Below, piece by piece: positions 3,524 to 21,514 of a stretch of DNA of 64,000 nucleotides (positions are counted from its first letter, which is position 1; every line of letters begins with the position of its first letter). The DNA lies in assembly GCA_036395115.1 (NCBI GenBank), contig DASWDU010000011.1:549-64548 (forward strand), written 5' to 3'. Origin of the DNA: Thermoplasmata archaeon. GTDB taxonomy: Archaea; Thermoplasmatota; Thermoplasmata; RBG-16-68-12. The notes beneath the pieces were generated by a model, which saw nothing but the letters and a program-made list of their open reading frames with translations, was not told the origin of the DNA and searched no databases. The position numbers were made by a program, and so were the translations under genes.

Positions 3524-4471
3524 CTAGACGACCTTCACGTCGAGCGCCTTCTCGAGGTTCGGCATCTTGTTCGCCACCGTGAAGAACGGAGATCCGGCGA
3601 ACAACAGCCCGACGGCGCGGCCGTCGTACCCGACGATCGTGCTCCCGGAATCTCCGCCCGCGCTGAAGGACCCGCGCTCGCCCTTGATGATCATCTGGTC
3701 CGTGAAGACGTAGGCGCCTGTCGCGTAGCCCACCCGGAGCGTCGCGCTCGCGTCCACCACCGCTCCGTTCGTGAGGCGCGTCGTGCGGCCGCTCTTCATC
3801 ACCTTCTCGTCGAGCGTCGGCTCGCGGGTCCCCCGCAATCGGCCGATGTTCAGGATGTCCGGGGTCACATCCCGCGCGTCGAACGGGGCCGCGATTGCGG
3901 CGTCCACGAGGTTCGGACCTTCCGGGTCCACCGCGACGTACGTGTCGAGGCGACCGATCACGTCGCGGTCCGTCTTGCCGCCATCGAAGGTGCCGGGCTG
4001 GAGGACCGGATCCCCTTCGACGCCGCGGTTCTCATTCGCGAGGACGTGGTTGTTCGACAAGATGAACGTCTCGCCAGCGTCCTGCACGAGGCACGACATC
4101 GTGCCGGCGGTGATGGCGTAGTGACCGATCGACAAGCCGCCCATCGCGGGACGGACCTTCCGTTGGTAGATCGGCGGGATCGGGCGCCAGATCGAGAACT
4201 CGCCCGCCTCCTCGATGTCCGTCGGCACGCCCTCGATCTCGTCCGGGATCGTCCGACCGTCCTTCACGAGGAGGGGATGGAGCTTTTGGCGGACGTAGAC
4301 CTTCACGACGAGCTCGTCCGTCGGGAAGCTGCGGACTGTGCGGTGGCCGATCCCCACCCCGACGACGTCCGGGTGGGTCGACGGCGTCAGTCCCTCCCTC
4401 TCGATCCCGAGGAGTTGGCACTCGCAGACGAGCTTCGCGTCTTCCGCGTTCGGCGTCATCCCACCCTTCAC
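3524..4471 (-). CDS. S1-family chymotrypsin-like serine peptidase
   Basis: 315 aa with an LSNNHV His region and a GDSGS catalytic serine motif near the C-terminus. The N-terminal ~90 aa form a separate domain (VVGVGIG...VYV...IPDEIEGVPTDIEEAGEF). Confidence 0.75.
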   Translation of the reverse strand: MKGGMTPNAEDAKLVCECQLLGIEREGLTPSTHPDVVGVGIGHRTVRSFPTDELVVKVYVRQKLHPLLVKDGRTIPDEIEGVPTDIEEAGEFSIWRPIPPIYQRKVRPAMGGLSIGHYAITAGTMSCLVQDAGETFILSNNHVLANENRGVEGDPVLQPGTFDGGKTDRDVIGRLDTYVAVDPEGPNLVDAAIAAPFDARDVTPDILNIGRLRGTREPTLDEKVMKSGRTTRLTNGAVVDASATLRVGYATGAYVFTDQMIIKGERGSFSAGGDSGSTIVGYDGRAVGLLFAGSPFFTVANKMPNLEKALDVKVV

Positions 4472-4692
4472 AGGGCCTTGAAGGTCCCCGTCACCACGAC
4501 CTCGATGGGGATGTCGTCGAGCGAATCCGGGATTTGCGCTCGGATTCGAGGACTGTCCTCGTCCACGTAGATCCGGATGCAGTCCTTGCCGTCCTTACGC
4601 CCGATGCCGACCCCGACCACCCCCCGCATCTTCATGAGATGGGCCTCGTGTCGACGCTTCACTTCCTCCACGGACCCCATCGACGTCTCCAT
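4468..4692 (-). CDS. small protein (74 aa) paralogous to the N-terminal domain of the downstream S1 peptidase
   Basis: An internal ATG in ORF 4468..5046 gives METSMGSVEEV...VVGVGIGRKDGKDCIRIYVDE...IPDSLDDIPIEVVVTGTFKAL. Its stop overlaps the peptidase start (ATGA). It aligns with the peptidase N-domain. Confidence 0.5.
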   Translation of the reverse strand: METSMGSVEEVKRRHEAHLMKMRGVVGVGIGRKDGKDCIRIYVDEDSPRIRAQIPDSLDDIPIEVVVTGTFKAL

Positions 4693-4781
4693 AGGAACGA
4701 GCGGACGATAAATCCGTCGACGGTTTTCCGGACCGAGAGGCACCGGTCGAGACCGGCAAGCCGGGAGTTCGACCGCCCGGG

Positions 4782-6176
4782 TCAGGGCGGGGGTGGCCGG
4801 ATGAAGCCGTCCTGCATCAGGAACTTCGTCTCCTCGTGCGCGCGTCGGATCAGCGCGAGGGCGCCTTCGAGGAGCTCGTCGCGGCTCTTCGTGACGCGGG
4901 CGATCCCTTGGTCGATCGCCTTCCGGCCGACGGCGGCGGCCTCCCGGGCGAAGACGTCGATCTCCTCCATGGTCGGCACGATGTGCTCCTCGTCCAGCCC
5001 GCGCTCCTCCTGGACTCTCGCGAGCTCCTCCGCCGCGGCGATGCACATCTCATCTGTAATGGTCCGCGCCCGCACGTCGAGGGTGCCGCGGAAGATGCCG
5101 GGGAAGCCGAGGCTGTTGTTCACCTGATTCGGGAAGTCGCTACGGCCCGTCGCGATCACGCGCGCACCGGCTTCCGCGGCTTCCCACGGCCAGATCTCCG
5201 GCACGGGGTTCGCAATCGCAAACAGGATTGAGTCGTCTGCCATCGACGCCACCCAGTCCTTCTGGATGACGCCGGGTCCGGGCTTTGACGCCGCGATCAC
5301 AACGTCGGCGTCGGCCATCGCCTCCGGGATGCCACCCTCGCGGCCTTCGGCGTTCGTCGTCTGGGCGAGTTCCCACTTCTCGTGGTAATCGGCCGCCGCC
5401 GCTTCGATGTCCGCGCGCCGACGACCGACGATCCCTTTCGAGTCCACGAGGATGAGGTGGCCCGGCTTCGCGCCGGCGGCGATGAGCAGCTTCGCCGTCC
5501 GGATGTTCGAGGCGCCCGCGCCGACGAGGGTGATCGTCACGTCAGCAACCTTCTTGCCCACGACCTTCAGCGCGTTGATGACGCCGGCCACGTTGATCGT
5601 CGCGGTCCCTTGTTGGTCGTCGTGCCAGACCGGGATCTCGCACTCCTTGCGCAGCCGCTCCAGGATGCCGAAACACTTCGGCTGCGCGATGTCCTCGAGG
5701 TTCACGCCACCGAACGAGGGCGTGATGAGCTTGACGGTCTCGGTGATCTTCTCCGGGTCCTTCGTCGCCAGCGGGACGGGGAACGCGTCGACGCCTCCGA
5801 GGTACTTGAACAGGAGCGCCTTGCCTTCCATGACCGGTAAGCCCGCTTCGGGACCGATGTCGCCGAGGCCGAGGACGCGCGTGCCGTCCGTGACGACGGC
5901 GACCTGGTTCCACTTGTTCGTCAGCGTCCAGACCTTCTCGGGATTCGCGTAGATGTCGAGGCACGGCTGCGCCACGCCGGGAGTGTACCAGATCGCGAAG
6001 TCGTTGAACGTCCGCACGGGGACCCGCGGGACGATCTCGATCTTGCCCTGATAGTACGGATGGTACTTCGCGGACTGCTCCTTCGGCAAGTTCGCCTTGC
6101 GGAGGTTGTCCGCCACCTCCTGTGGCGTCGGCGCCTTGACGTCCTTCGAGCGCGCGCGCTTCTTGGTCGCGACCAT
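4782..6176 (-). CDS. NAD(P)-dependent malic enzyme (malate dehydrogenase, decarboxylating)
   Basis: 464 aa from an internal ATG (MVATKKRARSK...). Contains the malic enzyme N-domain (FAIWYTPGV) and a Rossmann GAGASN motif. The 5' extension of the 600-aa ORF is low-complexity and is rejected. Confidence 0.85.
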   Translation of the reverse strand: MVATKKRARSKDVKAPTPQEVADNLRKANLPKEQSAKYHPYYQGKIEIVPRVPVRTFNDFAIWYTPGVAQPCLDIYANPEKVWTLTNKWNQVAVVTDGTRVLGLGDIGPEAGLPVMEGKALLFKYLGGVDAFPVPLATKDPEKITETVKLITPSFGGVNLEDIAQPKCFGILERLRKECEIPVWHDDQQGTATINVAGVINALKVVGKKVADVTITLVGAGASNIRTAKLLIAAGAKPGHLILVDSKGIVGRRRADIEAAAADYHEKWELAQTTNAEGREGGIPEAMADADVVIAASKPGPGVIQKDWVASMADDSILFAIANPVPEIWPWEAAEAGARVIATGRSDFPNQVNNSLGFPGIFRGTLDVRARTITDEMCIAAAEELARVQEERGLDEEHIVPTMEEIDVFAREAAAVGRKAIDQGIARVTKSRDELLEGALALIRRAHEETKFLMQDGFIRPPPP

Positions 6177-8012: not shown

Positions 8013-8420
8013 TCACGTCCACCGATCGACGACCGCCTCGATTTGCGCCCGCGGCAGCGCGCCCACGAGGCCCTCCACGAGCTTCCCGTCCTTGAAGAGG
8101 AGCATCGTGGGGATCGAGCCGACCTGGAACCGAGCGGGCGTCTGCGGACTCTCGTCCACGTTCAGCTTGCCGAGGCGCATTCGGCCCACTCGAGCCTTCG
8201 CGATGTCTTCGAGGACCGGCGCGACGCGGTGGCACGGCCCACACCACTCCGCCCAGAAGTCGACGAGCAGCAGCCCAGGCCTGCGGACCTCCGCCTCGAA
8301 CGTGGTGTCGGTCAAGGTGATCGGGCCGGTCCATGCCGGCGGCGCGGGCTTCGGCGCGAGTGCCGCGAGCAGCTCTTGACGCTTCCTCGCACGGATCGCC
8401 TCGAGATCGGGATCCTCCAT
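8013..8420 (-). CDS. trxA: thioredoxin
   Basis: WCGPC active site in the C-terminal 135 aa (internal ATG MEDPDLEAIR...). The 283-aa ORF's N-terminal extension is Arg/Pro-rich and is rejected. Confidence 0.7.
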   Translation of the reverse strand: MEDPDLEAIRARKRQELLAALAPKPAPPAWTGPITLTDTTFEAEVRRPGLLLVDFWAEWCGPCHRVAPVLEDIAKARVGRMRLGKLNVDESPQTPARFQVGSIPTMLLFKDGKLVEGLVGALPRAQIEAVVDRWT

Positions 8421-8464
8421 GCGGAAACCCACTTGGACGGGCGGATAAAAGCCTTTGGTCCCGC

Positions 8465-9796
8465 TCAGCGTGGGATCTTCGTGACGGAGCCGAATTCCTC
8501 CGCCATCTGACCCAGGAGCCGGAGCTCGCGCCGGACGAGCGCGATCTCGCGTTCGCCGAACGCGGTCGGGTCGAACGGGACGAGGAGGATCGCCTCCCGC
8601 ATCGCGACGGATTCGCTCAGGTCGTGCAAGAGGGCGAGGACCGAGCCGAAGTCGTTGTGCGACACGAGGTACTCGAACCCGTCGAGGAGGACGATCGGGT
8701 TCTCGCTCACCTCGATGAAATGCTCGACCGCCAACGCCACCTTCTCCGGTGGCGACGGCCGGATCGCGTTCTTCTCCGTCGCGACGCGGCTCAGCCAGAG
8801 CACGGGCGTCTTCTCGAGCCCGTATTCCGTCATGACGGACTTCGGCGAGCGACGGGTGATGCACAGGCCTTGCGCCCCGTGCGTCACGGAGTCCTTGAAG
8901 ATCTCGAACGCCTGGCCCGCGTCCCGTTCCAGGACGGCGTACGCGTGGCCTCGGTCCAACTCGTACGTCGGCTTCGTGAGCAGGTGCGCCTCCGCCTCCG
9001 GCAGGATCAGTGCCTGCAGGAACGACTTCTCGCGGACCCCGAACGCGATCAGCCCGACGAGCGCCATCTCGACGATGAACCCGGGCGCCCGCAGGTCGAT
9101 CCCGTTGTTCGGGAGAAAGATCTCGAAGAGGAGTTCGCCGACCGCAAACCCCGAGATCCCGAAGATGATGAGGAACGTGTCCCGCCGGACTTCCTGCCCG
9201 GGTTTCGTCTTACGCAGGTACGCGACGAACCGGTACGGAGCGTAAAGGATCAGCGTCGCCACCGCGAAACCGTTGATGAATAGGAAGTACGGCTCGAACG
9301 AGATCACGGTCGGGTTCGTCGAGATGACCTGGACCGGGGACACGAGGATCGTGATGATCGTGATGACCATGATGAACACGTAGAACACGTACGAGCTCGG
9401 GAACTCGTCCGTCATGTAGGCCGCGAAGTCCTTGCGCGAGCTGATCGCCGGCGTCGTCGCGACGACGATGAACGCGCCGATCGCGATCGCGAACAGGTAG
9501 TCGAACGTCGCCTGAACCCGCTTCGACAGGACGATGCCGTCTTTGAGAGACTGGATGAACTGTTGTCCCGGTTCGGTGACGTAGATCCCAATGAGGACGT
9601 TCGAGATGATCGCGCAGACCAGCAGGGAGACCGCGAACAACAGAACGTGCTTCTGGAACACCCGGTGCGTCTTCTGCCGCGCGATCGCGACGATGATGAG
9701 GATCGATAGGAATAGCGCGCTCGCGGCGCTCAGGTACGAGACGATGCTGTCGCTGGCGGCCAGGGAGAGTCCCCCGTTTCGACGCTGCACCAACAC
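8465..9796 (-). CDS. polytopic membrane protein with a C-terminal DUF835 domain
   Basis: N-terminal ~270 aa has 7-8 predicted TM helices. The C-terminal ~170 aa match the DUF835 pattern (WLSRV...VLLDGFEYLVSHNDFGSVLALLHDLSE...LLVPFDP). Confidence 0.7.
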   Translation of the reverse strand: MLVQRRNGGLSLAASDSIVSYLSAASALFLSILIIVAIARQKTHRVFQKHVLLFAVSLLVCAIISNVLIGIYVTEPGQQFIQSLKDGIVLSKRVQATFDYLFAIAIGAFIVVATTPAISSRKDFAAYMTDEFPSSYVFYVFIMVITIITILVSPVQVISTNPTVISFEPYFLFINGFAVATLILYAPYRFVAYLRKTKPGQEVRRDTFLIIFGISGFAVGELLFEIFLPNNGIDLRAPGFIVEMALVGLIAFGVREKSFLQALILPEAEAHLLTKPTYELDRGHAYAVLERDAGQAFEIFKDSVTHGAQGLCITRRSPKSVMTEYGLEKTPVLWLSRVATEKNAIRPSPPEKVALAVEHFIEVSENPIVLLDGFEYLVSHNDFGSVLALLHDLSESVAMREAILLVPFDPTAFGEREIALVRRELRLLGQMAEEFGSVTKIPR

Positions 9797-9939: not shown

Positions 9940-11232
9940 GTGACGCTCCAACCCGCCGTCCCGCTCGGCATCAACCGGGAGGACCTGGAACTCCTGTCCC
10001 GGACGGTCTTACGCCTCGGCGGATACGCCGAAGGCCTCTTCGAGTTCCATGACTTCGGGTTCGACAAGGCCTCCTTGCGGGACCACATCACGAACGTTCA
10101 CAAGGCTTTGAAGGAGCTTCGGGAGAACTCGACCTCAGGCGGCATCCCCCTGCGTCCGCCGAACATCCCGCCTGGGGCGTTCTGGGAGGACCAAGGCGAG
10201 GTGTGGAACTACCTGCAGACGCTCCGTTTCGCGGCGGGGGCGACGATGATGACGGAGCAGTTCAGCCCTCACATGCCGCGGGAGAACATCGCGAAGACAA
10301 TGACCGCGAAGGTCTACCGGGAATGCGTGATCGGCATCCTGGACGACCTGATCGACAAGGGGGCGTACTCGTACCTTGAGGCGAAAGACCTGCACCACAT
10401 GGTCCTCAGCACGATGTTCGATCCGGACTTCGATTCGACGTCGTTCATGAAGCGCCTGGTGACGATGCTGCGCCAGGACCAGATCCCTTTGTTCGACTTG
10501 ATCAACAACATCACCCGCGGGTTCAACGTCCTCTGGAACCACGCCCCCCATGGGGCCGACTACTTCTATCAGATGGAGATCATGAACGAACGCGTGGCCC
10601 TGAGCCAGGCCCTGACGATGTACCAGAAGGAACCGAACTTCTCGGTCGGTCGGATGGAGAAGGTCTCGGAGAGCTTCTACGCGCCCGACGACTCAATCAA
10701 TTGGTGGGAGAAGCTCGGCGGGCACGTGAGCGTCGCGAGCGGGCACAACCTGATCGACATGGCCTTCACCGACCAATCGTACGACCTCCGGCAGATGAAG
10801 AACTTCCTCGCAGGATGGTACTACTACGACGCCGCCGTGATCCTGATGGACCACGTGTCGAGCATCCACCAGGACCTCCGGAACGGGATTGCGAATCTCT
10901 CGCTCATCGCGATGCGGCAGAAGGAGCTCCGCGAGCTGACATCCCTGAAGAACTACAACCCGCACCTGACGATCGAGGACTACGACGCGCACCTGCGGCG
11001 CATCGCCGACCTCACGTCGATGGGGCTCCGCCTCGCGACGAAGGACATCCCGGACGAGAACCTCGTCTACCCGTTCATGACGATCATGATGCCCGTCGTC
11101 ATGATGGCCGACTGGATCGGGAACCGGGATGACATGATCCATACATTCCTCGAGGCGATCGCGCCCACGGTCAAGAGCGTCGCGGCCAACGGCAAGGTCC
11201 CGATGCGGGCCGTCGCGTCCGTCGCGGATTAG
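9940..11232 (+). CDS. hypothetical soluble protein with a DDLID (DDxxD) motif, immediately upstream of idsA
   Basis: 430 aa, predicted all-alpha, with GILDDLIDKG. No confident family assignment could be made from the sequence. Confidence 0.5.
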   Translation: MTLQPAVPLGINREDLELLSRTVLRLGGYAEGLFEFHDFGFDKASLRDHITNVHKALKELRENSTSGGIPLRPPNIPPGAFWEDQGEVWNYLQTLRFAAGATMMTEQFSPHMPRENIAKTMTAKVYRECVIGILDDLIDKGAYSYLEAKDLHHMVLSTMFDPDFDSTSFMKRLVTMLRQDQIPLFDLINNITRGFNVLWNHAPHGADYFYQMEIMNERVALSQALTMYQKEPNFSVGRMEKVSESFYAPDDSINWWEKLGGHVSVASGHNLIDMAFTDQSYDLRQMKNFLAGWYYYDAAVILMDHVSSIHQDLRNGIANLSLIAMRQKELRELTSLKNYNPHLTIEDYDAHLRRIADLTSMGLRLATKDIPDENLVYPFMTIMMPVVMMADWIGNRDDMIHTFLEAIAPTVKSVAANGKVPMRAVASVAD

Positions 11233-11353: not shown

Positions 11354-11383
11354 GATTTGATAGCACGGATTGGGACGGCCCCG

Positions 11384-12355
11384 ATGACGGGTTCGCACGA
11401 TTTTGGCGTGACCAAGGAACTCGCCCTCGTCGAGGAGCGGATCCGGGAGAGCATCGTCTCGGAGGAGCCTCTCCTCCATGACATCGCGGCCTACGTGATC
11501 GAGGCCGGGGGGAAGCGGATCCGGCCGATGGTCACCCTCCTCGCCTTCCAGGCGCTCGGCGGCACGGATGTCCGCCAGGCGATCGACCTCGCCGCCGCGC
11601 TCGAGATGATCCACAGCGCGACGCTCATCCACGACGACATCAACGACGGCGGCGAGATGCGCCGCGGCCGCCTCGCAGCCTACCGGAAGTTCGGCGTGCA
11701 GAACGCGCTCGTGACGGGGGACTTCCTCTTCGTCAAGGCGTTCGGCATCGGCGGCAAGTTCGACGCGGACATCGTCGAGCTCACGGCGCAGGCGTGCGCC
11801 GCGCTCGCGGAGGGCGAGATCCGGCAGCAGCGCCACGCGTACGATACGCACGTGAGCCGCGAGGAGTGCCTCGACATCATCCTCCGCAAGACCGCGCTTC
11901 CGATGATGGCGGGCGCGAAGATTGCCGGCCTGCTCGCGGGGGCGCGCCTCGAGGACGTCGACGCCGTCGGGGACTACGGCCTGAACCTCGGGATCGCCTT
12001 CCAGATCGTGGACGACATCCTCGACGTGGTCGGCGACGCCCTCCGGCTGGGGAAGCGGCCGGGGACGGACCTCCGGGAAGGGAACGTGACGCTCGTCGCG
12101 ATCCACGCCCTGAACGACGGCAGCCGGATTGACGTGCCGGCCCTCGCCCGGCTGATCCGCAAGCGGCGCAAGCAGGAGGCCGACGTGCAACGAGGGCTCG
12201 CCCTCCTCCGCGACTCCGGCGCGATCGAGAAGGCGCGGGCCGAGGCCCTGACGTACGCCGAGCTGGCGAAGAAGGCGCTCGATCCGATCCCGGACAGCGA
12301 GGCGAAGGCGAACATGTACCGCCTCGTGGAGTACGTGTTGTCGCGCGACGCCTGA
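11384..12355 (+). CDS. idsA: geranylgeranyl diphosphate synthase (short-chain polyprenyl synthetase)
   Basis: FARM motif LIHDDINDGGEMRRG and SARM motif FQIVDDILD. ATG at 11384 is preferred over the TTG at 11357 given the TATA position. Confidence 0.8.
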   Translation: MTGSHDFGVTKELALVEERIRESIVSEEPLLHDIAAYVIEAGGKRIRPMVTLLAFQALGGTDVRQAIDLAAALEMIHSATLIHDDINDGGEMRRGRLAAYRKFGVQNALVTGDFLFVKAFGIGGKFDADIVELTAQACAALAEGEIRQQRHAYDTHVSREECLDIILRKTALPMMAGAKIAGLLAGARLEDVDAVGDYGLNLGIAFQIVDDILDVVGDALRLGKRPGTDLREGNVTLVAIHALNDGSRIDVPALARLIRKRRKQEADVQRGLALLRDSGAIEKARAEALTYAELAKKALDPIPDSEAKANMYRLVEYVLSRDA

Positions 12356-12367
12356 GGGGGCGCCGCG

Positions 12368-13465
12368 ATGCCGACCCCCTACGACGTCCTCGTGGTCGGC
12401 GCGGGCCCCGCCGGGGGGACGGCGGCGCGGTACGCCGCGCGGCGCGGCCTCCGAGTCTTGCTCGTCGACAAGCGCAAGGAGATCGGCGTGCCGGTGCAGT
12501 GCGGCGAGTACGTCGCCCACAACGACGAGGTGCGGGCGATCTTCCCGACCGTCTCGGATCTGGAAGACCTCATGGAGATTCCGTACCGCGTCCGGGAGGT
12601 CGACACGCCGGTCATCCGGATCTGGTCGCCGGCGGGACGTCGCTACGACATCCCGTTTCGCGGCTTCACGGTCCGTCGGGACAAGATGGACCAGGGGATC
12701 GCCGACCAGGCGGCGGCGGAAGGCGCCGAGGTCGCGACCGAGACGACCGTCCTCCGCGTCCACGGCGAGGACGTCGAGACAAACCGCGGCAGCTTACGCG
12801 CGAAAGTGATCGTCGGCTCGGACGGTCCGCGCTCGACGGTCGCGCGGTCCGTCGGCCTCGAGTGGCCCGTGTCCGGACCCGCCATGAGCGCGACCGCAGA
12901 GGGCGACTTCGGCACGGCGACGGACCTGTACTTCGGGAACCTCGCGCCCGGCGGATACGCCTGGATCATCCCGAAAGCCGGCTGCGCGAACGTCGGCCTG
13001 GGCACGTGGGAGCATTTCCGCGGGAACCTCCGCGCGCTGTTCGACCGGTTCACCTTCGATCGAGGACTCGAGCCCGGCAAGGCGACGGGCGGGTTCGTGC
13101 CCGTCCAGGGACCGCCTCCGCGAACGGTCGCCGGCAACGCGATGCTCGTCGGCGACGCGGCGGGGATGGTCATGGCGACGAACGGCGGCGGGAACAACGT
13201 GGCGATGATCGCCGGCCGGATCGCGGGCCACACGGCGGCCGACCATCTCCTCGACGGCACGCCGATCGACGCATACGAAGAGCGCTGGCGTTCCGCCGTT
13301 GGCGGCCCGCTCGCGCAAGGCGTGCGGATCAAGCACCTCGCGGACCGCTTCTTCGGGAGCGATCGCCTCTTGGAGTTGTCGATGGTCCTCCTCGGTCGGC
13401 GGCGGATGGCGCGCGCGATCCGCTGCCAACCGCTGTTCGTGCGGGGCAGCGCCAGTCTCTTATAG
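12368..13465 (+). CDS. geranylgeranyl reductase family FAD-dependent oxidoreductase (digeranylgeranylglycerophospholipid reductase-like)
   Basis: N-terminal YDVLVVGAGPAGGTAARYAA Rossmann motif and GGR-family length (365 aa). Adjacent to idsA. Confidence 0.8.
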   Translation: MPTPYDVLVVGAGPAGGTAARYAARRGLRVLLVDKRKEIGVPVQCGEYVAHNDEVRAIFPTVSDLEDLMEIPYRVREVDTPVIRIWSPAGRRYDIPFRGFTVRRDKMDQGIADQAAAEGAEVATETTVLRVHGEDVETNRGSLRAKVIVGSDGPRSTVARSVGLEWPVSGPAMSATAEGDFGTATDLYFGNLAPGGYAWIIPKAGCANVGLGTWEHFRGNLRALFDRFTFDRGLEPGKATGGFVPVQGPPPRTVAGNAMLVGDAAGMVMATNGGGNNVAMIAGRIAGHTAADHLLDGTPIDAYEERWRSAVGGPLAQGVRIKHLADRFFGSDRLLELSMVLLGRRRMARAIRCQPLFVRGSASLL

Positions 13466-13492
13466 CGGCCCGAAGTATCGAATCGGGAACCG

Positions 13493-14716
13493 ATGGACTT
13501 TCAATTCCTCGGCGGGGCGTCCGAGGTGGGCCGCCTCGGGATGGTCCTCAAGAAAGGGCCGATCTCCCTCCTGTTCGACTACGGGCTGCTCCCGCGAGAT
13601 CCGCCGCAGTATCCGATGCCCGCCCCTCCGGTGGACGGGATGTTCATCAGCCACGCGCACCTCGATCACACGGGGATGATCCCGTGGGTGACCCGCCGCC
13701 AGGACCTCGACGTCGTGCTGACCCCGTCCACGGCGGACGTCACGGACCTCCTCCTCCAGGACAGCCTGAAAATCGCGGATGCGGAGGGCTTCGACGCGCC
13801 GTTCGACGACGGCGATCTGCGGGGCGCCCGGCGGCGCTTCAAGACGATCGACTTCGGGGACAACGTCGACATCGGCGACCTCGAGGTCACCGCGCATCCG
13901 GCGGGCCACATTCCCGGCGCGACGATGTTCGAGGTGAATGGGACGGAGACGACCGTCTTCACGGGCGACCTGCACACGCTGACGACGGACCTGGTGTGGG
14001 GCGCCCGGCCGGTGAAGTGCGACACGCTCTTCATCGAGTCGACGTACGCGGGGCGCCAGCATCCGGAGCGGCTCAAGTCGGAGCATGCGTTCCTGAAGAA
14101 GATCGAGCAGGTCGTGAACCGCGGGGGCCTCGCGCTCGTACCCTCGTTCGCCGTGGGCCGGACGCAGGACATCCTCTTGACGCTCGCCAAGGCCCGCCAC
14201 GAGGTCTGGCTGGACGGGATGGGGAAGAAGGTGAACTCGATTTACGTCGAGCACCCGGAGTACCTCCGGTCCGTCAAGGCCCTGCGGAAGGCGATGAACC
14301 GCGCGCGCGTCGTGCGAGGTCGGAGGGACTCGCAGCTCGCGTTGCGGGGCGACGTCATCGTCACGACGAGCGGGATGCTCGATGGCGGGCCCGTCTTGCG
14401 GTACATCGAGGAGATCCGGGAGGACCCTCGCAGCGCGATCCTCTTGACGGGCTACCAGGTCGAAGGCACGAACGGACGGCGGCTCATCGACGAGGGCGTG
14501 ATCGAACTCCACGGCGTCACGGTCGACATCAAGTGCGAGTGGCAGAAGTTCGATTTCAGTGCCCACGCGGGCCACGACGACCTCGTTCGGTTCATCGAGG
14601 GATGCGATCCGCAGCGGGTCGTCCTGATGCACGGGGAGAACCGCCAGATCTTGGCGGACGCCCTCGAAGGACGCGAGGTCCTCCTCCCTCTGGAAGGCCA
14701 GTGGCACACATTGTGA
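13493..14716 (+). CDS. metallo-beta-lactamase / beta-CASP family nuclease (CPSF-like)
   Basis: HAHLDHTG zinc motif plus beta-CASP motifs (TESTYAG, HAGHDD). 407 aa. Confidence 0.8.
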   Translation: MDFQFLGGASEVGRLGMVLKKGPISLLFDYGLLPRDPPQYPMPAPPVDGMFISHAHLDHTGMIPWVTRRQDLDVVLTPSTADVTDLLLQDSLKIADAEGFDAPFDDGDLRGARRRFKTIDFGDNVDIGDLEVTAHPAGHIPGATMFEVNGTETTVFTGDLHTLTTDLVWGARPVKCDTLFIESTYAGRQHPERLKSEHAFLKKIEQVVNRGGLALVPSFAVGRTQDILLTLAKARHEVWLDGMGKKVNSIYVEHPEYLRSVKALRKAMNRARVVRGRRDSQLALRGDVIVTTSGMLDGGPVLRYIEEIREDPRSAILLTGYQVEGTNGRRLIDEGVIELHGVTVDIKCEWQKFDFSAHAGHDDLVRFIEGCDPQRVVLMHGENRQILADALEGREVLLPLEGQWHTL

Positions 14717-14800
14717 CCGGATGCCCCGGACATCGGCCGGGCTTCCTCTCGTTGGCGGGTCGTGCCGCTCCGTCGAGCGAGGACCGCAGGGGCGGACCCG

Positions 14801-16018
14801 TCAGATGCCGACGTTCCTCGCGATCATCGCCCGCAATGCCTTCCCCACGTACTTCAGGAGCCGCGGGTCTTCCTTGATCAGGGCCCAACCCACCTTCGAC
14901 GGGAAGTCAATGTCGCCCTTTCTCTCGATCAAGTCGCGGATCTCGGGACTGTCGAAGATGTCGAACAGCTCCTCGAACTGCGCGTCCGTGAGGCGCGCGA
15001 AGCTTTCGTGAATCGCGAGGTCCTTCCGGAGCTCCTTTCCGATCGATCTTGTCCACGCCCGGTGGTAGCGGTGGAGCATCCGCCCGGAACAGTCGTTCGC
15101 CTGGAGGGCCTCGATCGCCGTCCTCGCGGCGAGGTCGGAGCACGTCAGGGCCGTGAAGATGCCACCGCCGGAAACGGCCTTCGCCTGGCACGCCGCATCG
15201 CCGACGATCATGACGTTGTCCGCGTACGTCCGGCGCGGGAATCCGAGGGGGATCCCGCCCGCGATGTACAGGATCGGCTGCGCTCCCTTCGTGTACTGTC
15301 GCACCTCGGGGCGTTGCAGCATTCTCTCGAGGTAGGCGTACGCGTTCCCCTGGCCGACGCACAGGCCGACGCGGGCCGTGTCGCCGCTCGGAATGATCCA
15401 GCCGAAGAAGCCCGGGGCGATGTCGCTCCCGATGAAGAGCTTCACGAATCCCGGGTCGCCGCGCACCCCGGTCATCTCGACCTCGAATCCGGGGAGGATC
15501 TTCTTCGGACGCAGGATGTTGAACCATTTCGCGACGTTCGAACGGACACCGTCGCAGCCCACGAGGATCTTGCAACGCAGCTTCCTCGGCTGTCCGTCCT
15601 GATCGACGACGACCTCGACGCCGCCGTCCTCGCGTCTCGCGGCTTGTGCCTGAGCGCCGAGGAACGTGTGCGCGCCCTTCCGGACCGCGTCCGTGGCGAT
15701 GGCGCGGTCGAACATCGCCCGTTGCACGACGACGGCCTCCGTATCGCGCCCGTCGATGACGAGCTTGCGGCCCGAAGGCGAGTACAGCTCCGCCCCATGG
15801 ACCGCTCCGATGATCGTCTCCTTGCAGTCCACGTACTCGAAGACCCGCGGGGTGACGAGGCCGCCGCACTGGATCGGCTCGCCGATCTCGCGGTGTTCCT
15901 CGACGAGGGCGACCTCGTATCCGGCCTTTGCGACCCTGCCTGCGAGGTAGCCCCCGGCCGGCCCGGCACCGATCACGATGACATCGAAGGAGCGCGCCGA
16001 GGAGACCACGTGCGGCAT
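14801..16018 (-). CDS. geranylgeranyl reductase family oxidoreductase (second paralog)
   Basis: Internal ATG (MPHVVSSARSFDVIVIGAGPAGG...) gives 405 aa. The start shares one base with the upstream TrmB stop (TGATG). The 5' extension of the 678-aa ORF is rejected. Confidence 0.8.
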   Translation of the reverse strand: MPHVVSSARSFDVIVIGAGPAGGYLAGRVAKAGYEVALVEEHREIGEPIQCGGLVTPRVFEYVDCKETIIGAVHGAELYSPSGRKLVIDGRDTEAVVVQRAMFDRAIATDAVRKGAHTFLGAQAQAARREDGGVEVVVDQDGQPRKLRCKILVGCDGVRSNVAKWFNILRPKKILPGFEVEMTGVRGDPGFVKLFIGSDIAPGFFGWIIPSGDTARVGLCVGQGNAYAYLERMLQRPEVRQYTKGAQPILYIAGGIPLGFPRRTYADNVMIVGDAACQAKAVSGGGIFTALTCSDLAARTAIEALQANDCSGRMLHRYHRAWTRSIGKELRKDLAIHESFARLTDAQFEELFDIFDSPEIRDLIERKGDIDFPSKVGWALIKEDPRLLKYVGKALRAMIARNVGI

Positions 16019-16020
16019 CA

Positions 16021-16761
16021 CTCCTTCAGGTTCATGATGATCTCGAGGAAGTTCTCCAGGTGCTTCGACAGCGACGCGTTGTCGGTATACCCGCACGCGG
16101 ACAGGTCCGGCGCGGCGATGAGCGCGGACGCGCCGTCCACGATGACGTCCGTGGCGATGAGACCCTTCCGGTGGACGGACGACGCTCCCTCCGGAATCTT
16201 CTGCCCCGGCTCCGTGATGATCGTGAATCGGATGCCGCGGGCGATCGCCTGCTCGATTTTCTTCCCCACGTTCTCCCGGATCTCCGAGAACGTCGGCGTC
16301 GACACGATCACGTTCTCCATCGACTGATCGATGAGCTCGCCGACCTTCTCGAGGACGCGCGGCTTCGTCACGATCGTGTAGACGAGCTGCGGCTCGCCTT
16401 TCGACCTCAGGACTTCGTGGAGCAGGTCGAGCTTGGTGAACGTGTCCTCCAGGTGCTCGATGACGCGGCCCTTGACCTTCCCGGGCGCCTCCGGCTTGAA
16501 GATCGTCGGGCGGCCCCGGGTCGAGATTGCAAACCCTTTCTGGCAGAGGCTCTGCAAGACCTTGTACGCGGAAGTGCGCGGAATGTGCGCCGTCTCCGCG
16601 ATCGTCTCCGCGCTCCCGTAGCCGTGGGCCACGAGGGCGATGTACCCGCGCGCCTCGTATCCCGAGAGCCCGATCGATTCGAGGGTCCTCGTGGCCCGAT
16701 CGAACTCCGCCTCCAGGTCCGCACCCCCGGCGAGGAGCTTCGACAAGTCTTGCGGAACCAC
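16021..16761 (-). CDS. TrmB-family transcriptional regulator
   Basis: N-terminal wHTH (LESIGLSGYEARGYIALVAHGYGSAETIAETAHIPRTSAYKVLQSLCQKGF) and a TrmB C-domain. GTG start at 16761 inferred (VVPQDL...). Co-oriented with GGR2. Confidence 0.7.
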
Positions 16762-16791
16762 GATTCCACGATACCCTAGGGCGCCATTTGA

Positions 16792-16806
16792 CCTTTTCGA
16801 AAGGGC
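16792..16806. promoter_or_regulatory. inverted repeat CCTTTTCGAAAGGG in the divergent TrmB / DUF835-protein intergenic region
   Basis: Near-perfect palindrome with a TTTCGAAA core, between the divergent starts at 16761 and 16873. Candidate operator. Confidence 0.25.
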
Positions 16807-16872
16807 CGCGTGCGGGCCGGGCGGTCGACCGGCACAAGCCTTTATCCCGACGGGACCTTTCCGTCGCGGTCC

Positions 16873-19326
16873 ATGGGCTCGGTGCGACCGGCCGGCTTGG
16901 CCCTCGGGGCCGCCCTCCTCCTGTTCTGGGCCGTCGTCGGGCCGTCGATCGGACAGAATCCGGCGGGCCGGATGATCGTCGCGACGGACTACGAGCTCTT
17001 CGGGACCTCGGACTTGCGCGGCGGCGGTCACGTCTCGTGGACCTTCACGGGATCGAAGGCCGCGGAGTTCCGCGCGAGGCTCATCCACATGTTCGACGAG
17101 TACGACATCGTCCCGCGTGGCTTCCCCGAGTCCGGCGCCTCGATTCTCGCGAACCGCGACGGGCGGCTCGACGCGGCGGAGGGACTCGTCTATACGGACC
17201 GCCTCGAGGTGATGCTCGAACGCCCCCCGGCGACAACGCTCCCCGGCACACCCGTGCAGTACATGAACCTCGGTCGCTTCAATCTGCGGGAGGACGATCC
17301 GAGCGATCGGGACACAGGTTTCCGGCGGAGCACCGCCGGCCTCGCGGGGGAGGATCTCAATTCCACTGCCGATGTCGTCATCCGCTTTCTCTTCGAGGCC
17401 TATTCGACCACGGCGAACGCACGCGTGCCGCTCCCGACGCCGGTCTTGGCGGAGGCTCCGTATGCCTTCTTTTCCTATGAGGCACAGCAGTCGCCGACGA
17501 TGACGCCGTCGGGCTTTCTTCCGGACGTCTGGCCGTTCTTGCACGAAGGCGGTTGGCACAACAATACCACCGCGGACGGGAGGAAAGCGATGTGGGCGGG
17601 CAACGACACGACCGGCGCGTACGACAACAACACCGTCGCCGCCACCCGGACGACCGCGGATCCCGCCCTCGCGCGCGCTTCGTCGTTCTACGAGCCGTTC
17701 GATCTACGGTTCGCATCTCACGCGTGGGTGACGTTCAACTACACGGGCCAGGTCGCGGACCCGAACGACCGGCTGCATCTGCAGATCGCGCAGGAGCCTT
17801 CCTTGACGATATGGACGAACCTGTCGTTCGGGCCATCGTTCGATCTGCCGTCGACGCCTGTCGGCTCATGGACGAACGCGACCGTGGACCTGGACGCGTA
17901 CCTCGGGCAGCGCGTACGGCTCCGCCTGAACTTCACTTCCGACGGGACGGGGAGCGGGCCGGGCTTCTTCATCCGAGATTTCGCCTTGCACGCGCCGGCC
18001 GACTACGAGGGCGAAGTCGTCGAGACGGATTCGCACTACCTGGTCGGCACGCTCAGCTTCTCCGATCCCGCACTCGTCTCCGGCGGCACTCAGCTCATCC
18101 GAACGCCCGGGGGCGAGATCCTGTACTACACGTCGGCGTGGGACGCGAGCGCCCCGGCTCCCGACTCAATTCGCTTCCGCACCCTCGACCTCACCGAGAA
18201 CCCGCAAGTCCTGTTCGGAGTCATGCTCGTGGCGTCGCACGCCATCTCGCGTCTCCAGAACGGCGCCTACCACCGGTACCGCGAGTCCCATCCGAGCGTT
18301 TTTCGGCCGGCGGTGCACAGGGTGAAATGGCTGCACAACATCGGCCGCGTCGCGATCGGTGTGCTGATCCTCTTCTACTTCGTCCCGACGGCCCTGGGAG
18401 TGGTCGGCCTTCGCACCTTCGTCTCGGGGCCCGCATACTGGTTCCTCTCCTTGACCCTCGCCTTGCTCGTCGGATTCGGCACGCGGGCGTACTACCGGCA
18501 GAGACTCGAGGAGGCGCCGCCTCCCGTGGTTGGCGCTCCACCCATCCTCGAGGGGCGAGAAGAGGTCCCGCCCTCGCCCGAACCGGTGGCCGTGTTCGCC
18601 CACTGCACGCACTGTCTGCGCGAGGTGCGGGAAGGCGACAAGACGTACAACTGCACGTGCGGCGCGGTGTACCACCTCAGCTGTGCTGCCGGCCTGATGC
18701 GTTGCGCGAACTGCCGAAAACCGATCGCCCTCGAGGTCGTCCGGGAGAAGAAGGTCGTCTCGATGCGGTGCGAGTCGTGCGGCGAGCTGCAGGTGATCCC
18801 GGAGGGCGCCGATCCCCGCGCGGTCACATGCGAGCACTGCGGCGGCCGCCTCCGCCACCTGGACACGGGCAAGCGGTACCTGATCGTCGCGAACAATCCC
18901 GCGATCGCGTTCGCGTGGATGCACGACCTGACGCAGGGCGGCAAGCCGTCCCTCTGCTTCTCGCCTGCGGCCCCGGACCGGCTCCGGCTCGAGTTCGGCG
19001 GCGAGGACGTGCAGTTCTTGCAGGTCTCCTCGCAGGCGCCGAACGCAATCGATCCGCACAAGCTCGATCCCGCCGGGCTGCGGGCGATCCTACCGCTCGC
19101 GCGGCAGGGCAAGGGTGGTGTCATCCTGTACGACGGCCTGGATCAGATCGTCTCGGACGCGTCTCTGGGCGACGTGATCCGCTTCCTCCGAAAGGCCAAC
19201 GACATGGCGTTCGTGCACGGGGTCACGGTGGTCGCGCGCGTCTCGCCCGGCCTTCTCCCGGACCCGGACCTCCGGCGGCTTCGCGCGGAGTTCGACGAGT
19301 ACATGGACCTCTCGGCCCAGATGTGA
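16873..19326 (+). CDS. large exported membrane protein: signal peptide, ~480-aa extracellular region, TM segments, cytoplasmic four-CxxC zinc-binding module and a C-terminal DUF835 domain
   Basis: ATG MGSVRPAGLALGAALLLFWAV is followed by a hydrophobic signal. TM helices lie around aa 500-560. The Cys cluster is CTHC...CTCG...CANC...CESCG...CEHCG. The C-terminus (RYLIVANNP...VILYDGLDQIVSD...) matches the DUF835 pattern. Confidence 0.65.
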   Translation: MGSVRPAGLALGAALLLFWAVVGPSIGQNPAGRMIVATDYELFGTSDLRGGGHVSWTFTGSKAAEFRARLIHMFDEYDIVPRGFPESGASILANRDGRLDAAEGLVYTDRLEVMLERPPATTLPGTPVQYMNLGRFNLREDDPSDRDTGFRRSTAGLAGEDLNSTADVVIRFLFEAYSTTANARVPLPTPVLAEAPYAFFSYEAQQSPTMTPSGFLPDVWPFLHEGGWHNNTTADGRKAMWAGNDTTGAYDNNTVAATRTTADPALARASSFYEPFDLRFASHAWVTFNYTGQVADPNDRLHLQIAQEPSLTIWTNLSFGPSFDLPSTPVGSWTNATVDLDAYLGQRVRLRLNFTSDGTGSGPGFFIRDFALHAPADYEGEVVETDSHYLVGTLSFSDPALVSGGTQLIRTPGGEILYYTSAWDASAPAPDSIRFRTLDLTENPQVLFGVMLVASHAISRLQNGAYHRYRESHPSVFRPAVHRVKWLHNIGRVAIGVLILFYFVPTALGVVGLRTFVSGPAYWFLSLTLALLVGFGTRAYYRQRLEEAPPPVVGAPPILEGREEVPPSPEPVAVFAHCTHCLREVREGDKTYNCTCGAVYHLSCAAGLMRCANCRKPIALEVVREKKVVSMRCESCGELQVIPEGADPRAVTCEHCGGRLRHLDTGKRYLIVANNPAIAFAWMHDLTQGGKPSLCFSPAAPDRLRLEFGGEDVQFLQVSSQAPNAIDPHKLDPAGLRAILPLARQGKGGVILYDGLDQIVSDASLGDVIRFLRKANDMAFVHGVTVVARVSPGLLPDPDLRRLRAEFDEYMDLSAQM

Positions 19327-19327
19327 T

Positions 19328-19897
19328 TCAGACGTCCGGCGGGCCGCCCCAACGCGGACCCAAGCCGTGCTCGACCCCGAGGTGGTCGAGGATCCGCGCG
19401 ACGACGAAGTCGACGAGGTCGTCGATCCGCTTCGGCTTGCCGTAGAACCCCGGAGAGGCAGGGAGGATCACGACGCCGAGGCGCGCGAGTTTGAGCATGT
19501 TCTCCAGCGTCACGGCGCCGAGCGGCGTCTCCCTCGGCACGAGGATGAGCGTCCTCCGCTCCTTCATCGCGACGGCCGCGGCCCGCGTCACGAGGTTGTC
19601 CGCGATGCCCGTGGCGATTTTCGCGAGGGTCGTGCCGCTGCATGGGACGACGACGAGGGCACGGAAGGGATGCGATCCGGACGCGGGTCCGGCCGCGAGA
19701 TCGTCCCCGGTATAGATCGTCCGGGCGCCCGCGGCGAACTCTTTGACAGAGAGCCCCGCCTCGACGTCGATGACGGCCTCCGCGTCTCGCGTCACGATGA
19801 GGTCCGCGCGGTCGCCGAGGGCCTCGATTAGTCGACGGGCGTACACGACGCCGGAGGCTCCAGTGACGCCCAGCAGGATTCGGGACTCCGGGCCCAC
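19328..19897 (-). CDS. ubiX: flavin prenyltransferase UbiX (PAD1 family)
   Basis: ILLGVTGASG flavoprotein motif. 189 aa, with typical UbiX conservation. Confidence 0.85.
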   Translation of the reverse strand: MGPESRILLGVTGASGVVYARRLIEALGDRADLIVTRDAEAVIDVEAGLSVKEFAAGARTIYTGDDLAAGPASGSHPFRALVVVPCSGTTLAKIATGIADNLVTRAAAVAMKERRTLILVPRETPLGAVTLENMLKLARLGVVILPASPGFYGKPKRIDDLVDFVVARILDHLGVEHGLGPRWGGPPDV

Positions 19898-20069
19898 GCC
19901 GGCGGAAGAGGCTCGGCGTGCGGATGAAGGTTCCGCGCCGGGCTATCGCCGTACGGCCATGCCGACGAGGCCAGGAAGCGGTTCCTTGGCAGGTGCGTCA
20001 TCTTCATCGCGGGAGGCGGCTGTAGGCGGCGGGGCGAAAAGAGTAACTTCTCTGGAGGAATTTCCGGGC

Positions 20070-20579
20070 GTGCCTCGCGTGCGCGTCCGTCGCGCGACCC
20101 TGAAGGACTTGGACCTCCTCGTCCGCCATCGGCGCGGGATGTGGGAGGCGGTCGCCGACCTGTCCGTGCGCGATCTCGACGCCGCAGACCGCGTGTACCG
20201 ACGCTGGGCCCGGGCGCGCATCCGTTCCGGGCGGCTCGTTGCTTTCATCGTCGAGCAGGATGGCGTGGCGGTGGCGAGCGGCTGCGTGTGGATCATGGCG
20301 GTCCAGCCGAGACCGCTCTGGAAAGGCACCCGCGCCGCGTATCTCTTATCGATGTTCACTGAGCCGAGCCACCGCGGCCGAGGGCACGCGACACGGGTCG
20401 TCCGCGCCGCCGTCCGCTGGGCGAAAGCGCGGGGAATCGACGTGATGCTCCTCCACGCGTCTCGGTTCGGCGAGCCGATTTACCGGAAGGAAGGTTTCGA
20501 GCCAACCACGGAGATGCGGCGCTTTCTCTCCACGCAGCGCCGCCGACGCCTGCCGAACCCGTCTCCGGCCTCCCGGTAG
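20070..20579 (+). CDS. GNAT-family N-acetyltransferase
   Basis: GTG start preceded by GGAGGA. Acetyl-CoA binding region (HRGRGHATRVVRAAVRWAKARG). 169 aa. Confidence 0.7.
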   Translation: MPRVRVRRATLKDLDLLVRHRRGMWEAVADLSVRDLDAADRVYRRWARARIRSGRLVAFIVEQDGVAVASGCVWIMAVQPRPLWKGTRAAYLLSMFTEPSHRGRGHATRVVRAAVRWAKARGIDVMLLHASRFGEPIYRKEGFEPTTEMRRFLSTQRRRRLPNPSPASR

Positions 20580-20794
20580 TTTCCTCCGGTGGGAGCACGC
20601 AACCTTCGTGTGAGCGAGAATTCGTATTGCAAGCCATGGAAGCGGAGTGGTTTCGCCGTCGTTCGCTCCCCATAGCATGCCGGAGCTCCGAGTCTTGGCA
20701 GAGTGACGTTAACCAGTCAGAAAGGTCTCGGCGTCCCTGGAGGGACCCTTCCTCCGTTAATGCGGGCCGGTTGCCACACAGGGCCATGCTGCTG

Positions 20795-21280
20795 TTACGC
20801 CTTGGTAACGGACGTGATTGTGAGGTTCGACCTGTCCGTGCTCGGGCAGGGCCATCCGCCGTGGTCGGGCCCGTTCACCGAGCTGCTTCTCGTAATTTGA
20901 GAACCCAACGGTACGAAATACTGATTCTTTCCCGCGGAATCGCCGTTCACGTAAAACATCACGCTAGCGAAGCCATTTGCATTGCCCGTGTTGACCAGAG
21001 TGAATGTCCACCTGAATGTGTAGTAATATGGACCGAAGAGGCCGCAGCCCGACTGTGTGTATGCGGCGTCAGTCAAGGTGATCTTGGGCGTGGCTGCAGA
21101 TTGCTGTGCGAGCGGGATTCCGAATCCCCAAGCCAATCCCACGATGACAACAGCAACTATGGCAATTACGACGTAGCGAGCAATGTGGCTCGGCCTCAGC
21201 GGCGCTCGTGGGACGTCGGGCGGCGGCGGTTGTTCGTACGGTGGCTCATAAGGTGGCTCCGAAGGTCCAGAAGGCTGCAT
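20795..21280 (-). CDS. hypothetical single-pass membrane/exported protein with a Pro-rich cytoplasmic N-terminus
   Basis: 161 aa. PPYEPPYEQPPPP repeat, then one TM helix, then a beta-rich ectodomain. Lies in a locally low-GC (~52%) islet. Confidence 0.5.
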   Translation of the reverse strand: MQPSGPSEPPYEPPYEQPPPPDVPRAPLRPSHIARYVVIAIVAVVIVGLAWGFGIPLAQQSAATPKITLTDAAYTQSGCGLFGPYYYTFRWTFTLVNTGNANGFASVMFYVNGDSAGKNQYFVPLGSQITRSSSVNGPDHGGWPCPSTDRSNLTITSVTKA

Positions 21281-21473
21281 CTCCTCCTCCGGAGTGTATC
21301 GCGACGCGGTGTACTCAATGGTTTCGGTCGTTTCGCGGCGAGGGAAAACGGCTCACAATCAAGCTGCACCACAAGACGGACCGAGCTTCGCTCTCGTGCC
21401 ACGGTGGGAACGCATTCAAGACCTTGCGACCGAGTGCGGCAATGATGCTATGCGACAATTCCCCGCCCCAAGC

Positions 21474-21500
21474 CTTCATATACGACCTCGATTTATGAAG
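21474..21500 (+). promoter_or_regulatory. AT-rich TATA-like elements (CTTCATATACG / ATTTATGA) upstream of rps19e
   Basis: 15-40 nt upstream of the ATG at 21515, consistent with a short-leader archaeal promoter. Confidence 0.3.
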
Positions 21501-21514
21501 CCCGAATTCACCGA

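Follow-up and report, generated by a model that had tools for sequence, protein, structure and literature searches.

Architecture of the locus

We analysed a 64-kb stretch of DNA from an uncultured archaeon of the Thermoplasmata (contig DASWDU010000011.1; hereafter the window), focusing on one gene that codes for a receptor-like membrane protein of 817 amino acids (aa) with a C-terminal DUF835 domain (the receptor). The window has a GC content of about 66% and carries genes for the archaeal ribosomal proteins S19e, L39e and L31e and for eIF6. The mechanically called open reading frame (ORF) spans 16810-19326 on the plus strand and would encode 838 aa from a GTG start. We rejected this start and accepted the ATG at 16873, which gives the 817-aa form, because this ATG aligns almost everywhere among 38 orthologous intergenic regions and a conserved TATA-like element lies upstream of it. 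A public entry, “DUF835 domain-containing protein” of Thermoplasmata archaeon, is 100% identical to the protein. An earlier reading made from the letters of the window alone (the sequence-only reading) had described five parts, namely a signal peptide, an extracellular domain, transmembrane (TM) helices, a cysteine-rich module and DUF835, and all five are present:

16873..19326, plus strand: receptor-like DUF835 protein, 817 aa plus stop (ORF; ATG alignment; about 100 orthologues)
16873..16956, plus strand: signal peptide, aa 1-28, predicted cleavage after SIG (n-, h- and c-region pattern kept in orthologues)
16957..17547, plus strand: N-terminal alpha/beta module of the ectodomain, about aa 29-225, fold not recognised
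17548..18042, plus strand: MAM/CBM-like beta-jelly-roll module of the ectodomain, about aa 226-390 (CBM, carbohydrate-binding module)
18043..18201, plus strand: conserved juxtamembrane stalk, aa 391-443, HYLxGxLSFS...IRTPGGE...ENPQ (invariant columns)
18202..18492, plus strand: membrane region, three hydrophobic segments and the basic loop 462-490 (hydropathy and K/R counts, 87 orthologues)
18598..18720, plus strand: C4HC3 RING/PHD-like binuclear zinc finger, aa 576-616 (ligand pattern)
18721..18858, plus strand: C4 zinc ribbon, aa 617-662, with C633/C636/C653/C656 (invariant Cys; predicted local distance difference test, pLDDT, 86-92)
18859..19323, plus strand: DUF835, an inactivated KaiC/RecA-like domain, aa 663-817

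The target gene is genuine and conserved among uncultured soil Thermoplasmata, and its product resembles a membrane receptor. It belongs to a large class that is known computationally and uncharacterised experimentally, the iKaiC/DUF835 archaeal signalling proteins.

Owing to the high GC content, the window also contains very long spurious ORFs in wrong frames (12499-14877 and 17553-19445 on the plus strand, 16018-17559 on the minus strand). A set of apparent alternative architectures without DUF835 (P0092-P0105) was rejected, as these entries translate the same locus in a wrong frame or across frameshifts; some such public entries read antisense through the neighbouring TrmB gene.

An inactivated KaiC-like domain behind two zinc modules

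The C-terminal domain scores above the gathering cut-off of PF05763 (33.1 bits), reaching 36.2 bits with the full protein and 39.0 bits with the cytoplasmic fragment, and the family was matched by all 23 orthologues tested (best E value 1.2e-26); the assignment to DUF835 made in the sequence-only reading therefore stands. A structure model of the cytoplasmic part (aa 560-817, from a 23-sequence alignment, pLDDT 86.8) displays a RecA-type alpha/beta core in this domain and, as a prediction, confirms that the DUF835 tail has a RecA/KaiC fold. Between the strand RYLIV (668-672) and the first helix lie three residues, ANN, and the Walker A motif GxxxxGK[ST] is absent throughout aa 663-817; with such a short strand-helix link and no such motif, the P-loop is missing. 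The loss fits an “inactivated” KaiC, and ATP hydrolysis would not be expected. The invariant VILYD754 lies in a strand that, from its place in the model, may correspond to Walker B. Galperin et al. 2018 (PMC5847659) list “DUF835 (iKaiC)” among output domains, in response regulators that join it to a phospho-receiver domain (REC-DUF835); the term iKaiC, for which they cite Makarova et al. 2017, denotes a KaiC-like ATPase domain that has been inactivated. Given this classification and the RecA/KaiC fold of the model, the view that DUF835 has no assigned function is outdated.

A search of PDB sequences with a profile of the cytoplasmic module returned no match to KaiC, RadA or RecA; its top matches, to AI-designed TIM barrels, were rejected as spurious and reflect the repeated beta-alpha unit. 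Profile scans with Pfam and NCBIfam detected no helix-turn-helix (HTH) or enzymatic domain in the 817-aa protein, and HisKA and HATPase_c had no Pfam matches in it. Of the proposal that the protein is a one-component transmembrane sensor, the sensor or receptor part is reasonable, but the strict one-component part fails, as there is no DNA-binding output and the HTH protein TrmB is encoded by a separate gene.

The cysteine-rich module resolves into two zinc-binding units. The first has the ligands C578-x2-C581-x12-C594-x-C596-x4-H601-x2-C604-x6-C611-x2-C614, the spacing of an eight-ligand cross-brace. It is found in about 85% of the orthologues and cleanly deleted in about 13%, which are forms of roughly 755 aa; its seven cysteines are individually kept in about 84-86% of orthologues, the remainder lacking the module by deletion, and H601 is nearly invariant in a 37-sequence subset. 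Matches to Prok-RING_1 (PF14446) reach 13.3-17.3 bits in the target, under the gathering cut-off of 29.1, and 33.0 bits, over the cut-off, in the paralogue P0121. zf-RING_2 matches occur in 14 of 23 orthologues, and in the PDB-sequence search RING-H2 E3 ligases matched this first finger (E 0.006-0.05). The four cysteines of the second unit, the zinc ribbon (C633, C636, C653 and C656), are invariant in 87/87 orthologues, with weak matches to Zn_ribbon_8 and S27e (the PDB profile match being ribosomal S27e).

Signal peptide, ectodomain and membrane region

The N-terminus reads MGSVRPAGLALGAALLLFWAVVGPSIG, followed by Q, with a basic n-region, a 17-aa hydrophobic h-region and small residues at -3/-1. 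Orthologues keep the same layout of n-, h- and c-regions, with A/G-x-A/G ahead of the conserved Q. This pattern is that of a Sec-type signal peptide, which would be cleaved before the Q, and its conservation bears out the sequence-only reading on this point.

The ectodomain comprises aa 29-443. An extracellular domain had been expected with a length of about 480 aa and no recognisable family; the domain itself is there, but it is about 415 aa long and contains a MAM/CBM-like jelly roll. It has no cysteine and nine N-x-S/T sequons, and 55 of the 87 orthologues have an entirely cysteine-free ectodomain. Counted over the 87 orthologues, sequons number 1.82 per 100 aa in the ectodomain and 0.13 per 100 aa in the C-terminal 270 residues, an approximately 14-fold difference. 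In a model of aa 29-445 (pLDDT 73.8) the module at about aa 226-390 has a beta-sandwich jelly-roll fold. Its match to InhA-like_MAM (PF20773) stays under the gathering cut-off in the target (23.7 versus 26.9 bits) and exceeds it in the relatives P0113 (29.7 bits) and P0133 (72.8 bits); precomputed Pfam assignments list PF20773 for several orthologues. An InhA-type metalloprotease was considered and rejected, since there is no HExxH motif, the nearest being HEGGWH, whose first histidine is not conserved, and the match is limited to the MAM part. The stalk (aa 391-443) is highly conserved, yet its pLDDT falls under 50 when the ectodomain is modelled on its own; relatives that lack the MAM module still have the stalk.

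The membrane region contains three hydrophobic segments, at about aa 445-461 (the weaker one), 492-514 and 519-537, as the proposed TM helices had implied. The loop at 462-490 is strongly basic, and the loops predicted to lie inside are basic. Three TM helices would be the only topology that places the sequon-rich part outside and the zinc/KaiC-like part inside.

Distribution and divergence of the family

About 100 full-length orthologues with 38-81% identity were found. Scanning one genome per species gave 44 loci, all in uncultured Thermoplasmata, “Methanobacteriota” or Methanomassiliicoccales-labelled metagenome-assembled genomes, many from soil or groundwater by sample name. When the cytoplasmic-module profile was searched against 1.84 billion cluster representatives, 2,177 proteins matched at E<=1e-3 and 660 at E<=1e-10. 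Sampled matches commonly share one layout, with a signal peptide, an ectodomain, one to three TM helices, an optional Prok-RING, a zinc ribbon and DUF835. The statement that a sensor-type architecture is not standard for DUF835 is thus contradicted, this layout being common among the roughly 2,200 DUF835 cluster representatives. The ectodomains carried by the same cytoplasmic module are interchangeable and include InhA-like MAM, NosD beta-helix with PKD, and NHL propellers; in shorter relatives the jelly roll is missing, while the N-terminal module and the whole region from the stalk to the C-terminus are shared.

In a second class DUF835 follows five to eight TM helices. The window holds a DUF835 paralogue of 443 aa (8465-9796, minus strand) with 6-7 predicted TM helices, DUF835 at 102 bits and no zinc modules, and counterparts lie at the same relative position in two other loci (L001 and L006).

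The receptor changes much faster than its neighbours: compared with the L001 locus, identity is 94% for TrmB and 89% for the adjoining geranylgeranyl-reductase (GGR)-family protein, against 66% for the receptor. Among the receptor's own parts, mean conservation is lowest in the N-terminal ectodomain module (54%) and highest in DUF835 and the RING finger (69%).

Conservation of the gene neighbourhood

Three genes flank the receptor:

14801..16018, minus strand: GGR-family flavoenzyme (TIGR02032, 220.3 bits; cut-off 158.8)
16018..16761, minus strand: TrmB-family transcription regulator, 247 aa, GTG start (PF01978, 66.7 bits; cut-off 25.6)
19328..19897, minus strand: UbiX-family flavin prenyltransferase, convergent with the receptor, stop codons 1 nt apart (TIGR00421, 204.6 bits; cut-off 108.9)

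As noted earlier, TrmB and GGR form a pair divergent from the receptor; the spacer to TrmB is 111 bp (110 bp in the sequence-only reading), and the TGA of TrmB (16020-16018) overlaps the ATG of GGR (16018-16016) as TGATG, where relatives have a gap of about 3-46 nt. The TrmB-family protein has no sugar-binding domain (Regulator_TrmB 15.1 versus 22.2 bits) and scores 39-50 bits with the TrmB/TrmBL equivalogs of NCBIfam, far under their cut-offs of 500-650. The GGR-family protein reaches no lipid-reductase equivalog cut-off.

In every clade locus with enough flank (about 37) GGR and TrmB diverge from the receptor in this same order, and UbiX lies downstream in every clade locus with downstream flank. 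A single locus (L043) separates TrmB from the receptor, by an insertion of about 1.6 kb (4388-6001). The adjacency to TrmB, proposed from the one locus, is also conserved in some distant relatives, identities being to the target:

P0113 (32%): TrmB-GGR kept upstream; downstream flank different, upstream beta-CASP retained; KaiC-like ATPase about 1 kb downstream
P0123 (29%): TrmB-GGR kept upstream; flanks different
P0122 (28%): TrmB-GGR kept upstream; UbiX, then KaiC-like ATPase
P0128 (25%): TrmB-GGR absent; UbiX-KaiC kept
P0121 (30%, partial): TrmB-GGR absent; neither UbiX nor KaiC
P0142 (24%): TrmB-GGR absent; neither UbiX nor KaiC

The three KaiC-like ATPases near these relatives are orthologues (57-61% mutual identity, PF06745, Walker A-like GRAGTMKS). 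Each lies one or two genes away from a relative of the receptor with 25-32% identity to the target, and the flanking context differs among the three. Genes for KaiC-like ATPases were located at 8043-8789 (minus strand) in L058, at 5867-6577 in L055 and also in L060-L066. In the distant relatives the KaiC-like gene and UbiX appear to form an operon that occupies the interval from the receptor to S19e. In a metagenome scan the closest relatives of these ATPases (62-100% identity) came with six loci with enough flank (L060, L062-L066), which have the order S19e, KaiC-UbiX, receptor, TrmB-GGR, in full or as far as the flank covers it; among more distant KaiC paralogues only L080 and L130 have a DUF835 ORF nearby, in both cases DUF835 only.

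Further out on the upstream side, past GGR, lie genes for a beta-CASP nuclease, another GGR paralogue and an IdsA-like prenyl diphosphate synthase. Isoprenoid-related genes (the IdsA-like synthase, the two GGR-family paralogues and UbiX) thus surround the receptor at 11357-16018 and 19328-19897; neither GGR-family paralogue reaches any lipid-reductase equivalog cut-off. The 407-aa beta-CASP nuclease between the GGR genes matches the C-terminal two thirds of aCPSF1 only. A 430-aa protein without a Pfam or NCBIfam family (9940-11232, plus strand) is divergent from the second DUF835 gene; it is 45-82% identical in related loci, where it lies directly upstream of the prenyl synthase gene. Between a GNAT gene and S19e, about 935 bp (20580-21514) have a GC content of 0.58 (versus about 0.66) and include a 161-aa ORF (20795-21280, minus strand) with a proline-rich N-terminus, one TM segment and no family match. 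As most related loci have a much shorter gap at this point (about 130-150 bp), the stretch looks like an insertion specific to this genome.

Predicted divergent promoters

We read the 111-bp spacer against the archaeal promoter consensus, a B recognition element (BRE) followed by a TATA box. It contains three elements of interest:

16786..16802, minus strand: BRE/TATA-like element of the TrmB gene, TTTCGAAAAGGTCAAAT, about 27-30 nt upstream of the TrmB start
16792..16805, no strand: palindrome of the sequence-only reading, CCTTTTCGAAAGGG, imperfect, 6/7 arm pairs
16838..16849, plus strand: BRE/TATA-like element of the receptor gene, AAGCCTTTATCC, purine-rich/TTTAT, about 28 nt upstream of the ATG

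The receptor element is conserved in nearly all of the 38 aligned intergenic regions, and its spacing has the geometry of a BRE/TATA promoter with a leaderless mRNA, a function we assign from the consensus and which remains a prediction. On the TrmB side the block TTT(T/A)A(T/C)C(C/T)TTTTC is conserved across the loci and reads on the minus strand as CGAAAAG plus a TATA-like box.

The palindrome had been suggested as an operator of TrmB in a shared divergent promoter region. This suggestion was rejected. Besides the imperfect pairing, equally good 14-mers occur at chance frequency, 180 times in the window (2.8 per kb) and twice within the 111-bp spacer alone. Across orthologous loci the left part (YCTTTTC after TTTWAYC) is conserved and the right arm is not, so that the symmetry is lost in almost all of them; the conserved left half coincides with the BRE/TATA-like element of TrmB. 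From locus to locus, the distance between the two promoter elements differs by tens of bases, and the aligned intergenic regions revealed no shared operator that is conserved. Because the palindrome is unconserved and the promoter spacing variable, the region is best read as two probably independent back-to-back promoters, with nothing in the alignments to suggest a shared operator.

Other repeats lie around the TrmB start codon. The window's group of loci has a direct repeat, CCACG-N4-5-CCACGATAC (16745-16778 in the window), and a second group (L005, L022, L023, L027 and L041) has an imperfect palindrome, ATCACG-N2-3-CGTGGAT. The latter resembles the TrmB motif of Thermococcales, TATCAC-N5-GTGATA. 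These repeats may be sites of autoregulation.

Functional interpretation

The architecture, the fold, the lost P-loop and the gene neighbourhoods are observations; ligand binding, transmembrane signalling and a partner protein are inferences. In the best explanation the target would be a transmembrane sensor, in which a ligand-binding ectodomain controls an ATPase-dead KaiC-like output through the stalk and the TM bundle, and we give this reading about an even chance. The jelly-roll ectodomain would bind a ligand outside the cell, for which a glycan, an envelope polymer or a surface protein is the most plausible choice, and binding would cause a conformational or oligomeric change that is passed through the conserved stalk and the TM bundle. 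The dead KaiC domain, aided by the zinc modules, would act as the output by docking onto a partner or co-assembling with it. The likeliest partner would be an active KaiC-like ATPase such as those beside the distant relatives, with TrmB as a downstream or alternative partner, and cytoplasmic targets would be modulated through the partner.

Several observations argue for the sensor. The zinc ligands are confined to the C-terminal part, the sequons lie outside and the inside loops are basic; PMC5847659 lists DUF835 as an iKaiC output domain; and the ectodomain has a fold of ligand-binding type. Swapped ectodomains behind signal peptides are what would be expected of interchangeable inputs, and the ectodomain changes faster than the output and the neighbouring genes. 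The KaiC-like partner is proposed because orthologous KaiC-like genes lie near diverged relatives of the receptor.

Other observations weigh against the sensor and its proposed partner. For the N-terminal module of the ectodomain no fold is recognised, and no particular ligand can be put forward. The hydrophobicity of the first TM segment is only moderate, and both topology and signal peptide are read from hydropathy and sequence pattern. tblastn found no KaiC-like ATPase in the 64-kb window, where, as in the rest of its clade, the slot of the KaiC-like gene is filled by the GNAT gene (19944-20579, plus strand), and none of the best 120 matches to the KaiC-like orthologues lies on a 1.04-Mb contig of a clade member. 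Synteny within the clade covers the whole block, including ribosomal genes, so that the adjacency is weak evidence of a functional link and may be inherited rather than selected. To our knowledge no DUF835 member has been studied experimentally, and the steps of the mechanism above are all inferred.

The protein could instead be mainly a structural or adhesive surface protein, whose ectodomain attaches to the envelope of its own cell, to adjacent cells or to a substrate while the cytoplasmic zinc/iKaiC part anchors or organises it. Folds of the MAM, Eph and CBM types are well known from modules for adhesion or carbohydrate binding, the ectodomain is sequon-rich and fast-evolving like those of surface-exposed adhesins, and a catalytic output domain is lacking. 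However, the most conserved parts are the cytoplasmic DUF835, the zinc ribbon and the TM/stalk region, not the ectodomain; one cytoplasmic module is joined to many different ectodomains; and DUF835 also serves as the output domain of response regulators, which points to signalling. We consider this account unlikely, though with an appreciable chance of being right.

A further possibility builds on the gene order. The receptor might be a membrane-tethered control of TrmB, for instance by sequestering and releasing it according to the state of the envelope or membrane, and thereby act on GGR and the isoprenoid genes and on lipid or quinone saturation. The GGR-TrmB/receptor order holds in all of the roughly 37 flanked clade loci and is interrupted between TrmB and the receptor in L043 alone, while insertions occur elsewhere in the block; linkage to TrmB persists at 28-32% identity, with differing flanks in P0113 and P0123 and synteny in P0122; and isoprenoid genes abound nearby (IdsA-like prenyl synthase, two GGR paralogues, UbiX). 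Yet three relatives (P0128, P0121 and P0142) have no TrmB/GGR beside the receptor, each promoter has a BRE/TATA element of its own, the spacer between them varies and no conserved shared operator was found, the substrate of the GGR paralogue is unassigned, with no equivalog cut-off reached, and contact between receptor and TrmB is a proposal drawn from gene order. We regard such control as rather unlikely, with a small chance at best. A membrane-bound, RING-dependent E3-like ligase working with a ubiquitin-like system, as the cross-brace-compatible C4HC3 ligands and the weak matches to RING-H2 E3 ligases and Prok-RING_1 might suggest, is extremely improbable, given that the RING module is deleted in about 13% of orthologues and absent from relatives with only zinc ribbon and DUF835, that all RING matches of the target fall under curated cut-offs, and that no genes for ubiquitin-like proteins (Ubl), E1 or E2 were seen nearby in the 64-kb window.

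Relation to known systems

The transmembrane sensor we favour has its closest described counterpart in the REC-DUF835 response regulators (PMC5847659), which share the C-terminal PF05763 as the presumed output, classed as iKaiC. Their input is a phospho-receiver; in the target an extracellular module takes its place, together with a signal peptide and three TM helices, and the RING-like finger and the zinc ribbon precede DUF835. Compared with the archaeal single-domain KaiC-like ATPases (ArlH/FlaH, 4yds/4wia; PH0284, 2dr3; SSO2452, 2w0m), the DUF835 domain of the target is 6-11% identical, its Walker A P-loop is deleted and it is tethered to the membrane within an 817-aa protein. The multi-pass paralogue at 8465-9796 likewise carries a C-terminal DUF835 behind a membrane-embedded N-terminus in the same genomes, but has 6-7 TM helices, neither a large ectodomain nor zinc modules, and a DUF835 score of 102 bits versus 36 for the target.

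On the extracellular side, the predicted jelly roll would have the same fold as the MAM domains of eukaryotic receptors (RPTP-mu/kappa, meprin, neuropilin) and of bacterial InhA (M6; 4yu5), and would, like them, be extracellular, glycosylated and close to the membrane. Its kinship in sequence is a weak one, to PF20773. Unlike these proteins the target has no phosphatase or protease domain and no HExxH, and the likeness to the eukaryotic receptors is one of architectural analogy, not orthology. With Prokaryotic RING finger family 1 (PF14446) it has the binuclear C4HC3 arrangement in common, although it scores just 13-17 bits and has no ubiquitin-like context.

The protein already carries a DUF835 annotation, its architecture is a frequent one in the family, and nothing established is overturned. 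Archaeal signal transduction beyond two-component systems is poorly understood, and the proposal of KaiC-like/iKaiC hubs is largely computational. The locus offers a clean, widely conserved receptor-type iKaiC protein with a defined extracellular module, and its relatives supply candidate partners in an orthologous KaiC-like ATPase, a TrmB-family regulator and GGR-family and UbiX-family enzymes; among the new findings, the TrmB-GGR and UbiX-KaiC neighbourhoods that recur offer the most useful lead. The receptor, the TrmB-GGR operon and UbiX, with or without the KaiC-like ATPase, might even form one module, in which an envelope cue would act through a pair of dead and active KaiC domains on TrmB and so on isoprenoid-lipid or quinone saturation. 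We hold this to be very unlikely as it stands; if true, it would be the first concrete signalling route for archaeal membrane-lipid adaptation and would give DUF835 its first assigned role.

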